A DNA stretch of 64,000 nt, taken from assembly GCA_031268935.1 (NCBI GenBank), contig JAIRWL010000010.1, positions 5,288-69,287 of the forward strand, written 5' to 3'. The translations under genes and the position numbers were made by a program. Numbering within the stretch: position 1 is the stretch's first letter; every line of letters begins with the position of its first letter. The notes under the pieces are model-generated. The model had not been told where the DNA came from and did no database searches. It saw only the letters and a program-made list of their open reading frames with translations. Below, piece by piece: positions 17,303 to 19,986 of the stretch. The stretch comes from Holosporales bacterium. GTDB taxonomy: Bacteria; Pseudomonadota; Alphaproteobacteria; RUG11792.

Positions 17303-17462
17303 TGAGCATTGTACCTGCCCGAGTCCTTCGGGTAATTATCGATTAGGAGGATTTGCTGGCCAGGTATGCTCCTTGTCTTAAAGCATACCCGAATGATCAC
17401 TGGGGGAGGGATTTCTCGACAACCCATCCCCATATCATAACGCCTACCGTGAGGTGGGGGAG

Positions 17463-18695
17463 TTATTTATGTCTTCTACGTATGGAGGGAGCCGGTGGAT
17501 CCTCCCTACGTACTTCCTGGCGTCTGTCTCTTCGGCTGGACCTCGCCTTCGATGCAGATCTTTCTTGATCGGGAGCCGATTGGGGATCTGCGTCCATTTC
17601 CTGCCGAACTCGATCACCTGATCTGTCCACGGTGGCCGGGATTGTTTCATCATCCGGTGTTGGTTGCGTGCTCCCCTTGCGTGACCTGCCGGCGGAGAAT
17701 TCTGATCCTCTGACACTCATGGGTATAGCCCTTCCAGATGCGAAATGAGCCTCAGCGGCCGCTACTTCGGCTCGAAGTTCCTCGACCTTTCTCCTGATCT
17801 CCCTTTCCCGGGCAGCCTTAGAAGCACCAGCTCTGGAGGATTCTCCTCGAGCCTTAGCCGGAGTGTCTTCAGAAACCCTGCCTTGGCTCGTTCTCCTCTT
17901 CTGTGAACTGGCTTCGAAGTCTGCCGATCCTCTGCCACCCACGATACTAGATCCTTCAGATGATGAATAATCCTCAGCGGGCACTGCTGACAATGGAACT
18001 TCCTCGACCTTTCTGCGTGATTCCCTTTCGCGGGGAGCCCTAGGACCACCAGCTCGGGAGTATGCTCCACGAGGCTTGTCCGGGGTGTCTTCCGAAACCC
18101 TCCCTTGGCTCTTTCTCCTCTTCGGTGACCTTCCAGCGGATGATTCCGATTCTCTGTCACTCAGTGGGCTACTTTCTTCGGGTAGGGAATTATCGGATGT
18201 GGCAGAATGAGAGGTCTCAGGGGGATTAGCGTCAGCCAGGGCCTGCCGAACTCGAGCGCTTGGGCTGCCTGCTGATTCCGGGGCTCCTCTTTTTGGCTTA
18301 TCCATCGGTATATCATCTAATTCCTGGTGTGTGGCGGGGGCGGTTGGTGCAGTCTCGGGAGGAGCCGGAGGTGTATCCACTCGCTCAGCTTGCCCAACGG
18401 GCCTCTGCCCTTGCCTGGCCTCTAATACCTGTATCTGAGCCTGCCAGAGGCTCAACGGTATGTCTTGGACACATGGGACAAACCCGAGCGCCATGTTACC
18501 AGGCAAGTGATCGAGAAAATTAATCCCTACGGAAGCCGCCAAAAAAAGGACTTGGTCGTTGCCGGTCGCACTGTCCGGATTATTTCTCAGCAACAGTTGT
18601 CCTACCTGTATAAAAGCGGAGACTCTGGGATCGCGCTCCTCTTTCATGGGATCGCGAGCCGCGGCCTGAGAATATTGTTGTGTCGATAAAAGCAT
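17463..18695 (-). CDS. Family B basic repeat protein (410 aa as annotated); ancestral start codon is ACG
   Basis: The ORF aligns with its paralog from MLLSTQQYSQAAARDP. The 27 codons upstream (to 18776) encode TYRKTSDTKAKRSRKKILSTLLVVIVP, matching the paralog's MYSNTSETKDKRSSKKILSKLLVVIVP, but ACG (18776-18774) replaces ATG behind a good aaggag RBS. Internal repeats of about 80 aa (KRRKSQGRVSEDTPDKPRG...RERESRRKVEE). Confidence 0.6.
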   Translation of the reverse strand: MLLSTQQYSQAAARDPMKEERDPRVSAFIQVGQLLLRNNPDSATGNDQVLFLAASVGINFLDHLPGNMALGFVPCVQDIPLSLWQAQIQVLEARQGQRPVGQAERVDTPPAPPETAPTAPATHQELDDIPMDKPKRGAPESAGSPSARVRQALADANPPETSHSATSDNSLPEESSPLSDRESESSAGRSPKRRKSQGRVSEDTPDKPRGAYSRAGGPRAPRERESRRKVEEVPLSAVPAEDYSSSEGSSIVGGRGSADFEASSQKRRTSQGRVSEDTPAKARGESSRAGASKAAREREIRRKVEELRAEVAAAEAHFASGRAIPMSVRGSEFSAGRSRKGSTQPTPDDETIPATVDRSGDRVRQEMDADPQSAPDQERSASKARSSRRDRRQEVRREDPPAPSIRRRHK

Positions 18696-18945
18696 TGGGA
18701 CTATAACTACTAATAAAGTGGATAGTATCTTTTTCCTTGATCGTTTGGCTTTCGTGTCGGATGTTTTTCTGTACGTATTTACTCCTTTTCTTTGAATGTT
18801 CCCAACTTCTCTGGGTACCTGAGATGTTTATTGATTTGCTGGCCAGTTATACTTCTTGTCGTAAAGCATACCCGAATGATCACTGGGGGAGGGATTGTGC
18901 GGGAACCCAGCCCCCTAGCTTATATCTTACCGTGACGTGTGAGGG

Positions 18946-19928
18946 TTATTTACCTCCTCTAGGTCTGGAGGGAGCCGGACGAGCAGCTTCCCTGGCCTGC
19001 GGTCCTTGAGAACTTGTGCTTCTTCCTGAGGCGGCTCTGCTTGTCTGCTTCGTCGGAGGAACGTCGACTGGGTCCAGGTTGGACTGGAGTGACCACCCTG
19101 CTTGGCGGGCGTTCTCGGGCGAAGTGGTTGCTGCTACCGCTTGCCTTAGCATTTCTTCGGACGTACGAGTTATGTCCTGGCACGTAATGCATGACTGCCC
19201 ACTAAAAGCGCCGTACGACAGCGCCCTCATATCATTATAAGACAATAGCCATGGCTTCAATATCCCTACCCAACAAACTCTTTCTAAGGTGTCCATGTCA
19301 GTCTCCCCAGGTAATGGCTCGAACTGGTCAGGCCCGGATCTAGGCGGAGGAGATCCTTCCGGGATATCTTCAGGGGCCCTGGTCCGGGGTGGGTACTTCA
19401 ACCGCCCGCATGCGGCTTCTATTTCTGAGATCAATTGTCGGCATCTGCTCACGTCGAAGGGGGGGGGAATGCGGACGTGTTCACCCTCCCTTGCCTCTCT
19501 AATTCTCCCCAATACCTGAGTCCTAGAGTTCCGAAAAGGGACAGGATCCTCCTATCCGAAGGAGAGTATCTCTGTTGCGCCGCCCTTTCCTCGAACTGCT
19601 GCTTGCAGGCCCTTATAACTGCCGCATTGACTTGTTGGGGCCACCGAAAAGGTGCAGGGTCATCGCCCCTTGCGAGCTGTTCCCGCAAAACAGAAGTTCC
19701 TAATCCTGCCAATGTTAAAAGGATATTCACATCGGCTGAGCGCAGTTCTTCTGTAGACCGGGCGTACGTATGAACTAGATCCGTAAGCGCTGCTAGGGTG
19801 GGATCCTGCGCCGCGGCCAGAGAATTTTGGGGTGTCGATAATAGCATGGGGACTATAACTACTAATAATTTTGATAGGATCTTTTTACTTGAGCGTTTGT
19901 CTTTCGTTTCGGATGTGTTGCTGTACAT
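18946..19928 (-). pseudogene. Family B paralog split at a C9 tract (ORFs 19449-19928 and 18946-19512)
   Basis: The signal-peptide-bearing ORF ends ...AFPPPST-stop just after the G9/C9 run at 19459-19467. The second ORF continues ...IPPPFDVSRCRQL in the other frame across the same run. One extra C (or two fewer) would fuse them. Confidence 0.55.
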
Positions 19929-19986
19929 ATATACTCCTTGTCGTTGAATGTACCCAACTTCTCTAGGTACCTGAGATATTGCTTGG

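Follow-up and report, generated by a model that had tools for sequence, protein, structure and literature searches.

Adjoining exported-protein genes beside ftsZ in a Holosporales bacterium: a C9-tract gene that may be phase-variable and a paralog with an ACG start codon

Two neighbouring genes that carry different lesions may be the remains of a family undergoing birth-and-death evolution or the parts of a locus whose expression can be switched. This question is raised by Family B, which consists of two head-to-tail units on the minus strand, copy A and copy B, adjoining ftsZ within the 64-kb window (the whole stretch of DNA that was analysed, 64,000 nucleotides). The ftsZ gene starts at 20313 on the plus strand, and the promoter of copy A is divergent from it. 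An initial annotation had read the locus as a whole-gene tandem duplication with a repeat unit of about 1.48 kb and had proposed either birth-and-death or switchable expression. The features that bear on the question are the following:

19988 to 20016, minus strand: copy A promoter, TTGACA (20016-20011), 17 nt and TATATT (19993-19988), an 11/12 match with verified hexamers.
19799 to 19980, minus strand: copy A 5′ block with leader, AAGGAG (19939-19934), ATG (19928-19926) and signal peptide (self-BLAST, alignment).
19449 to 19928, minus strand: copy A ORF1, 159 aa, signal peptide and helical N-terminal region (ORF reading, predicted structure).
19459 to 19467, minus strand: run of nine C (C9; G9 on the plus strand) at which the frame breaks (run scan, frame translation).
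18946 to 19458, minus strand: distal frame of copy A, with one LRR-like unit; its end, RPAPSRPRGGK*, lies within the shared 3′ block (translation, HMMER).
18833 to 18978, minus strand: copy A 3′ block, which comprises the final 11 codons, the stop codon and a pair of hairpins that lack a U-run, and abuts the copy B leader (self-BLAST, folding).
18647 to 18828, minus strand: copy B 5′ block with leader, AAGGAG (18787-18782), ACG in place of ATG (18776-18774) and signal-peptide coding sequence (self-BLAST, alignment).
17463 to 18776, minus strand: copy B reading frame, with signal peptide, about 90 helical residues and then a charged Ser/Pro/Arg/Glu-rich region (ORF reading, predicted structure).
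17667 to 18163, minus strand: copy B internal tandem repeat, 2 x 222 nt (74 aa), about 73% nucleotide identity (self-BLAST).
17350 to 17495, minus strand: copy B 3′ block with PPAPSIRRRHK*, hairpin 1 and a perfect 13-bp hairpin 2 (self-BLAST, folding).

Both units span ATCTCAGGTACC to CTGGCCAGCAAATC, their boundaries are homologous, and the 3′ block of copy A is separated from the 5′ block of copy B by 4 nt. Self-BLAST aligned the 5′ blocks (19980-19799 with 18828-18647, 182 nt, 85.7% identity, E 3e-55) and the 3′ blocks (18978-18833 with 17495-17350, 146 nt, 82.2%, E 1e-35). These matches far exceed chance and confirm that the 5′ leaders, the signal-peptide coding sequence and the C-terminal ends are common to both units, as had been annotated. 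The sole other match between the copies was of low complexity (E 0.024), and the first 110 mature residues showed no detectable relationship when compared with shuffled sequences (z = 0.18). Because the mature regions are unalignable, homology is demonstrated for the ends alone, and Family B is a mosaic pair rather than a clean 1.48-kb duplication. Of the whole-gene tandem duplication that had been proposed, the head-to-tail order and the homologous 5′ and 3′ modules stand, but the gene bodies do not align. The figure of 1.48 kb fits the length of copy B and the offset between the 3′ blocks (1483 nt), whereas copy A is 1.15 kb long; the 5′ blocks are offset by 1152 nt. The shared 3′ flank extends over about 110 nt instead of the 70 nt or so first given. 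No further copies of either block were present in the genome with up to 8 mismatches allowed, and no paralogs of the mature regions were found elsewhere in it. The dN/dS ratio of about 0.45 between the two signal-peptide blocks, like that of about 1.0 between the repeat units of copy B, shows weak constraint only. Homology between the copy A promoter and hairpin 2 of the 3′ block looked plausible by eye and was discarded, as alignment did not support it.

The anatomy of copy A is that of a gene with a single lesion. Its promoter is the only strong sigma-70-like site on the minus strand within 17200-20320, its leader begins near the predicted transcription start and its 5′ block ends 3 codons past the predicted AAA↓QDP cleavage site. 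The signal peptide reads MYSNTSETKDKRSSKK / ILSKLLVVIVPMLLST / PQNSLAAA↓QDP, and both copies display the features of a Sec-type SPase I signal peptide (basic n-region, h-region, AxA and no lipobox Cys), which were assigned by eye. The C9 run lies at codon 153 of 327, and ORF1 stops at TGA (19451-19449), 4 codons beyond it. The distal frame is open for about 170 codons to TAA (18948-18946), and the two frames overlap only in a stretch of about 100 nt that holds the tract. Translation of the possible tract lengths gives products of 327 aa for C10 and 326 aa for C7, both ending in the shared C-terminus, 159 aa for C9, and 185 and 186 aa for C8 and C11, respectively. Copy A thus contains within its ORF a homopolymer of a length that permits slippage (about 7-8 G/C or more), in which a one-unit change toggles between the full-length and the truncated product, and no second lesion is present.

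The lesion of copy B is of another kind. Its signal peptide has the same layout as that of copy A, and the frame continues for 437 codons without a stop until TAA (17465-17463), each repeat unit bearing a KRR(K/T)SQGRVSEDTP core. The ACG sits 5 nt behind an intact AAGGAG, and no lesion other than the start codon was found. A search for a hidden promoter yielded upstream candidates of 7/12 at best. The first ATG (18695-18693) falls within the hydrophobic core of the signal peptide, which an internal start would therefore split. On all these points the assembled sequence bears out the initial annotation, which had described the TTGACA-N17-TATATT promoter and the frameshift at the C9 run in copy A, together with, in copy B, the ACG behind its ribosome-binding site, the missing promoter and the signal peptide that an internal start would cut. 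In E. coli, ACG belongs to a group of 57 codons that initiate at 0.1-1% of the level of AUG (bioRxiv 10.1101/063800). Because ACG is a point change with such a low rate of initiation, copy B fits birth-and-death, either as a young pseudogene or as a near-silent gene; a T-to-C change of the start codon is not a high-frequency reversible switch. The 437-codon frame remains open in sequence of 54% GC, which suggests that the silencing was recent.

Copy B could still be of use as the silent partner of an expression site, a promoter-less and start-less donor whose body is moved behind the promoter and ATG of copy A via the shared blocks, either through gene conversion or through loss of the DNA between the directly repeated 5′ blocks. 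What copy B is missing is exactly the promoter and the start codon, it has kept a long ORF, and conserved blocks surround a variable core, with perfect identities of up to 20 nt in the 5′ block and 35 nt in the 3′ block. However, systems of the msp2 or pilE/pilS type have near-identical anchors and several donors, whereas the anchors of Family B are just 86% and 82% identical (dS of about 0.29) and the genome holds a single candidate donor. Frequent conversion would homogenise such anchors, intact MutS/MutL would suppress recombination at this divergence, and copy B retains its full leader and RBS, unlike typical truncated silent cassettes. A donor role for copy B is for these reasons very improbable.

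The C9 tract of copy A is one of 34 internal G/C runs of at least 9 nt in this genome of 43% GC, where about 3 would be expected from the decay of shorter runs. The GC-richest 191 kb contain 27 runs versus 2.4 expected and the other 764 kb contain 7 versus 1.0, whereas A/T runs of at least 9 nt show no excess (72 versus 95 expected). The G/C excess is biased to exported-protein genes: tract density is 15-fold higher in GC-rich islands of orphan exported-protein genes, many tract-bearing ORFs combine a signal peptide with a TM anchor at the C-terminus, and none of the 10 that were scanned matched Pfam. Among tract-bearing ORFs of at least 150 aa, 7 are ON (clean examples are C27:2001, with G13, and C17:22065, with C12) and 13 are OFF (clean single-lesion examples are C27:44513, C22:393 and copy A), a proportion that random phase or neutral decay would yield. 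Orthologs of the C22:393 family, with which tract lengths could have been compared, were not found in relatives. Exact G10 runs number 0-8 per genome across the family. In the congener G005, all 4 tracts are located at or just after the signal peptide, in in-frame ORFs of 344, 310, 176 and 166 aa, and the congener G001 contains one tandem ON/OFF pair. Since MutS and MutL are intact in the genome under study, the tracts did not arise from a loss of mismatch repair. The tract of copy A, located mid-gene, differs in position from the 5′-proximal tracts of the congeners. Runs at the ends of contigs all resemble poly-G artefacts, being C where a contig starts and G where it ends.

It may be asked whether the lesions arose during sequencing or assembly, in which case the true tract would be C10, or the true start of copy B ATG, or both, and one or both genes would be intact. 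The genome is a short-read de Bruijn metagenome assembly, in which contigs overlap by exactly 119 nt, G/C homopolymers are error-prone in short-read data, the contig-end runs look artefactual and both ORFs are known from a single contig. Nevertheless, a 9-nt run is normally called correctly by short-read consensus, a T-to-C substitution error in the consensus is very unlikely and the internal tracts have unique sequence on either side. Further, the 13 OFF genes divide into 7 that would be corrected by -1 and 6 by +1, a near balance that gives no sign of systematic length miscalling. The artefact explanation is, on the whole, improbable.

The same near balance weighs against recoding, in which full-length copy A would be made with no change in the DNA, through a -1 ribosomal frameshift or through slippage of transcription at C9, and copy B would be translated from ACG at a low functional level. 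In form, the heptamer C CCC CCC is an ideal slippery site for -1 frameshifting, and copy A needs a -1 change of frame (equivalent to a +1 nt insertion). Initiation at ACG is also measurable in E. coli (bioRxiv 10.1101/063800). However, a programmed -1 site combines the slippery heptamer with a structure at 5-9 nt, and here the heptamer stands by itself: the 90 nt that follow the tract form less stable folds than shuffled sequences do (z = +1.3), with no downstream stimulatory structure. Transcriptional slippage, for its part, is known mostly at A/T runs. Among the other OFF tracts, corrections of +1 and of -1 are required in roughly equal number, and no single recoding mechanism could provide both; there is little likelihood that recoding accounts for this locus.

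Beyond the genome itself, no homologs of copies A or B were found in 40 relatives, in a word search of 5.8 billion proteins, or in Pfam, NCBIfam or PDB sequences. An exhaustive HMMER search with the distal half of copy A returned the query itself and one weak LRR protein only, and exact-protein look-ups of FtsZ, copy B and the two frames of copy A (A-ORF1 and A-ORF2) in other assemblies found nothing. No second copy of the locus was present in any collection searched; in the public collection, A-ORF1 and the copy B ORF are both singleton proteins known from one contig. The 20-nt invariant word of the signal peptide gave chance hits only among metagenome and genome contigs (an unrelated membrane-protein gene, a Hodarchaeota MAG and a Bacteroidetes MAG). 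Genomes of the same genus have only ftsZ (77-79% aa) in common with this neighbourhood, so the copy number of Family B in relatives is zero rather than variable. Single-sequence AlphaFold2 models were all-helical and, with pLDDT of 48 for A-ORF1 and 46 for the N-terminus of copy B, too poor for a fold search.

The main rival explanation is plain double pseudogenisation, according to which a lineage-specific family is decaying and has left both copies as young pseudogenes, the frameshift at C9 is the likeliest first lesion in a slippery tract, with no regulatory role, and the tracts are mutational debris in relaxed GC-rich island DNA. Rapid turnover predicts the absence of orthologs even within the genus, the loss of the copy B start codon is an ordinary inactivating mutation, the dN/dS of the copy B repeats is about 1 and the ON:OFF ratio of about 1:2 fits random phase. 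This explanation leaves unexplained, however, the excess of about 10-fold that G/C runs, unlike A/T runs, show in a genome of 43% GC, the 12-13-nt in-frame tracts inside intact exported-protein genes, and the tracts right after the signal peptides of all 4 in-frame genes of a congener. It also has to accommodate the fact that the tract alone is the lesion of copy A and the start codon alone that of copy B. We regard it as unlikely, although clearly more probable than an artefact.

The reading that we prefer, and to which we give about an even chance, is that copy A is a slipped-strand switchable gene in its OFF phase and copy B a recently silenced paralog. Family B is a pair of adjacent species-specific exported-protein genes, in which common end modules (leader and signal peptide at the 5′ end, C-terminus and 3′-UTR at the 3′ end) enclose unrelated, fast-evolving mature regions. 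Copy A, otherwise intact and in possession of the only promoter, would have its frame set by a hypermutable C9 tract. In the assembled state, presumably the majority among tract lengths that vary within the population, its translation would end at codon 159, and slipped-strand mispairing that adds one C (C10) or removes two (C7) would restore the full product of 327 or 326 aa. Copy A would thus behave as a simple-sequence contingency (phase-variable) locus sampled OFF. Against this reading count the ON:OFF proportion, which random phase or neutral decay would also give, the mid-gene position of the tract, the weak constraint and the absence of homologs in which cross-species selection might be seen. 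Expression of copy B would need read-through from the promoter of copy A, with initiation lower by about 100-fold or more, and, as Rho is present, premature termination in the OFF phase of copy A could also silence copy B by polarity. Both alternatives of the initial annotation hence retain a part. Switchable expression receives indirect support for copy A, whose C9 is among the 34 tracts, is the single lesion and is corrected by one added C, and birth-and-death suits copy B.

More broadly, and with slightly less confidence, a family of uncultured bacteria with genomes of 0.7-1.1 Mb may have an undescribed poly-G/C 'phasome', of which copy A would be one switch. Each species would possess private, fast-turnover exported or anchored proteins that combine shared signal-peptide and anchor modules with hypervariable cores and switch randomly by slipped-strand mispairing despite intact mismatch repair, and, by way of Rho polarity, C9 would gate copy B as well. 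Phase variation at homopolymers is characteristic of host-adapted pathogens that have to evade immunity or phage, and no report of it in Holosporales or other protist endosymbionts was found in the literature searched. If true lineage-wide, its adaptive use would imply that reduced-genome bacteria of the endosymbiont type also face variable selection (host recognition, digestion, within-cell competition) and diversify a private set of exported proteins in response. For annotation, ORFs of these genomes that are split at a G/C run should not automatically be taken as pseudogenes or miscalls. Family B by itself is modest, one OFF-phase gene and one start-less copy.

Several known systems resemble this locus in part. 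Bartonella is likewise a host-associated bacterium with SSR contingency loci, and its SSRs have been tied to host adaptation (PMC11466379). The work on Bartonella has evidence from experimental evolution, whereas the case made here is from sequence; the likeness concerns the presence of such loci. The 'functional pseudogenes' of Anaplasma msp2/p44 and Neisseria pilS also place a promoter-bearing copy beside a promoter-less, start-less one, with conserved flanks and a variable core, but in Family B the flanks are 82-86% identical, there is one donor, copy B keeps its leader, RBS and signal peptide, and no evidence of conversion was seen. The pmpG group of Chlamydia (PMC4514472, PMC4488443) shares the reduced genome of intracellular type, the paralogous exported proteins and a frame that depends on a G/C run; Pmps, however, are autotransporters with recognisable domains and cross-species orthologs, neither of which is recognised in Family B. 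Mycoplasma hyorhinis vlp and M. bovis vsp genes are also adjacent; their 5′ UTR and signal peptide are highly conserved, whereas the mature regions diverge and contain internal repeats. As is proposed for copy A, expression in vlp is governed by a homopolymer, although there it is a promoter poly-A and here a mid-gene poly-C, and vsp genes switch by site-specific inversion. Family B further differs from both in having no lipobox Cys, only two members and a conserved 3′ end. In comparison with the poly-G/C 'phasome' of Campylobacter jejuni and Helicobacter, the bacterium described here is uncultured and of the endosymbiont type, its tract-bearing genes encode orphan proteins that are exported or anchored, and it possesses MutS/MutL. 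C. jejuni lacks MutS/MutL. The two cases are otherwise alike in their tracts: in Campylobacter and Helicobacter, intragenic G/C runs of about 8-13 nt set the frame of surface-related genes, each small, AT-leaning genome carries tens of tracts, the excess being specific to G/C and the ON/OFF states mixed, and some tracts near the 3′ end would switch the C-terminus (PMC8355987, PMC2823697).

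Family B consists of two head-to-tail units on the minus strand, copy A lying upstream, next to the divergent ftsZ gene (20313-21665, plus strand), and copy B downstream. The promoter hexamers, both AAGGAG motifs, the ATG, the C9 run and the ACG codon of the initial annotation were all verified in sequence and are listed with the segments that the units share.

20016-20011, minus strand: -35 hexamer TTGACA of copy A
19993-19988, minus strand: -10 hexamer TATATT of copy A
19939-19934, minus strand: AAGGAG of copy A
19928-19926, minus strand: ATG of copy A
19467-19459, minus strand: C9 tract of copy A
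18787-18782, minus strand: AAGGAG of copy B
18776-18774, minus strand: ACG at the conserved start of copy B
19980-19799 (A) and 18828-18647 (B), minus strand: 5′ block, 182 nt, 85.7% identity, E 3e-55
18978-18833 (A) and 17495-17350 (B), minus strand: 3′ block, 146 nt, 82.2% identity, E 1e-35

The pair had been described as a 1.48-kb tandem duplication. Self-BLAST of 17300-20050 gave exactly two inter-unit matches, the 5′ and 3′ blocks; this confirms the observation, with the correction that homology is limited to these end modules (182 + 146 nt). Between the blocks the DNA of the two copies does not align, the first 110 residues of the mature proteins align no more strongly than shuffled sequences (z = 0.18), and the sole other protein HSP is Ser/Pro/Arg-rich low-complexity sequence (E 0.024). 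Since the cores do not align and the units differ in length (1.15 kb for copy A, 1.48 kb for copy B), family B is a mosaic in which common end modules surround unrelated or saturated cores. The 5′ block begins at ATCTCAGGTACC, about 11 nt past the -10 hexamer and thus roughly at the predicted transcription start of copy A, and ends sharply three codons beyond the point where signal peptidase is predicted to cut, AAA↓QDP in copy A and AAA↓RDP in copy B. The 3′ block begins 11 codons ahead of the stop (PAPS...), contains two hairpins without a U-run and finishes with CTGGCCAGCAAATC, abutting in copy A the leader of copy B. No further copy of either block was found in the 955-kb genome with 8 mismatches permitted. 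The non-coding leader is identical at 48/56 positions, and 6 synonymous and 11 non-synonymous differing codons among the 43 of the signal peptide give a dS of about 0.29 and a dN/dS of about 0.45, so the ends are moderately diverged, neither freshly converted nor under strong constraint. Only the invariant hydrophobic core and a perfectly conserved 35-nt stretch of the 3′ block depart from this. That the pair represents an expression site and a silent cassette is considered highly improbable.

The architecture of family B recurs across the genome, where dozens of gene-end modules of 100-300 nt share 75-95% identity and C-terminal TM-anchor modules are common to otherwise unrelated proteins (54-75% amino acid identity). 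Among exported proteins, one Gly-zipper anchor of about 90 aa occurs, at 54-75% identity, at C27:2001, C27:44513 and C4:791 (contig:position), and a second C-terminal anchor at C22:393, C23:41330 and C13:435. Several anchor-module proteins carry a poly-C (PPPP) tract at the module boundary, just upstream of (D/E)(D/E)I(A/T)xA. A 144-nt AT-rich element (16979-17122) between copy B and the gene of a 518-aa exported protein matches C2:7507-7650 at 89.6% identity, which makes it a candidate for a further shared module of the upstream or leader kind.

No relatives of family B were detectable in 40 related genomes, two large protein libraries, Pfam, NCBIfam or PDB; the two ORFs of copy A were singletons from one JGI/IMG contig. 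The copy A protein combines a helical N-terminal part with a distal half that contains Cys and a single LRR-like unit (about 19175-19260, KPWLLSYNDMRALSYGAFSGQSCITCQDI), whose match to a 1289-aa LRR protein (E 1.2e-4) is the sole similarity outside this genome; no LRR family was found elsewhere within it. Most of the copy B protein is disordered; it is highly charged and carries basic repeats of the KRRK type. Self-BLAST revealed a tandem repeat at 17667-18163 (2 x 222 nt, about 73% identity), each 74-aa repeat having an NLS-like basic core, KRR(K/T)SQGRVSEDTP...RERExRRKVEE, and the dN/dS of about 1.0 between them shows little constraint. AlphaFold2 models made without an alignment were uninformative, and the products are most simply predicted to be exported proteins.

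In copy A, ORF1 (159 aa) stops four codons past C9, and a second frame, open from about 100 nt before the tract to a TAA at 18946, terminates in the C-terminus common to copy B. The two frames overlap by about 100 nt, so the frame change sits in the stretch containing C9. With C10 or C7 the product would be 327 or 326 aa, compared with 159 aa for C9 as assembled and 185 or 186 aa for C8 or C11; no second lesion exists beyond this frame break, in agreement with the proposed frameshift at the run. A programmed -1 frameshift at C9 was unsupported because the 90 nt downstream form no more stable a structure than shuffled sequence (z = +1.3). Recoding is rated highly improbable.

The genome-wide context changes the reading of this tract. 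Run-length counts for G/C decay geometrically to 7 nt and then flatten, with 34 internal runs of at least 9 nt observed and about 3 expected; A/T runs of that length show no excess (72 observed, 95 expected). The GC-richest 191 kb hold 27 of the G/C runs (2.4 expected) and the remaining 764 kb hold 7 (1.0 expected), a 15-fold difference in density between GC-rich orphan-gene islands and the rest. Runs at contig ends (C at the start, G at the end, 11/11) were excluded as two-colour-chemistry artefacts. These poly-C starts and poly-G ends, up to 62 nt long (C2, C3, C9, C10, C13, C16, C21, C26 and C27), are likely Illumina poly-G artefacts. An overlap of exactly 119 nt, shared by many contigs, points to a k=119 de Bruijn assembly.

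After choice of the best phase, 20 tracts fall in ORFs of at least 150 aa, 7 in frame, or ON (for example C27:2001, G13, and C17:22065, C12), and 13 out of frame, or OFF. A single change fully restores several OFF genes (C27:44513, C22:393 and copy A). Seven of the 13 require -1 and six +1, which argues against systematic miscalling of tract length. An assembly or sequencing error behind the lesions of family B is judged unlikely. In many of the tract-bearing ORFs a signal peptide is combined with a Gly-zipper TM anchor at the C-terminus, and no Pfam family was found in the 10 scanned. Further tracts lie beyond the window at C5:93573 and C5:94510. The tandem paralogs C17:22065 and C17:23064 both carry their tract at codon 24, directly behind the signal peptide, as C12 (Pro codons, ON) in the former and G15 on the coding strand (Gly codons, OFF) in the latter. 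This suggests that the homopolymer, rather than the encoded Pro or Gly, is maintained. MutS, MutL and Rho are present.

Exact G10 runs number 0-4 per genome in five congeners and 0-8 across the family. Loci fetched around them in two congeners showed G/C tracts of 9-13 nt at exported-protein ORFs. All four such tracts in G005 (L027-L030) coincide with or directly follow a signal peptide, in ORFs that are in frame (344, 310, 176 and 166 aa). In G001 (L025-L026), one gene of a tandem pair is ON and the other OFF, their tracts preceding the h-region, and the tract of a 163-aa in-frame gene directly follows AQA↓. Since these are separate species, with FtsZ 77-79% identical, and separate assemblies, the link between G/C tracts and exported-protein genes is a trait of the lineage rather than something produced by one assembly. 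No synteny around ftsZ was found in the congeners.

Copy B retains an open frame of 437 codons, whose random chance at 54% GC is about 1e-8 as estimated from base composition, and its lesion is for this reason taken as recent. No ATG, GTG or TTG occurs between the upstream in-frame stop and an ATG at 18695, which lacks a Shine-Dalgarno sequence and falls mid h-region, so that an internal start would indeed cut the signal peptide. The view that copy B has no promoter of its own also held, the best sigma-70-like site in the 3′ UTR of copy A scoring 7/12. In E. coli, ACG belongs to a group of 57 codons initiating at 0.1-1% of AUG, and separate mass spectrometry of ACG-start sfGFP detected N-terminal methionine as well as, in one culture, threonine (bioRxiv 10.1101/063800). 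The ACG start and the lack of a better promoter suggest that copy B would be at best very weakly expressed, by read-through from copy A only. Both copies may be ordinary young pseudogenes, a reading that we hold to be possible though rather unlikely. We give about even credence to copy A being a slipped-strand switchable gene caught OFF and copy B a recently silenced paralog relying on the promoter of A. The mechanism, homopolymer slippage, is of a known kind; the literature searched appears to hold no report of it across this family of endosymbiont-type bacteria.
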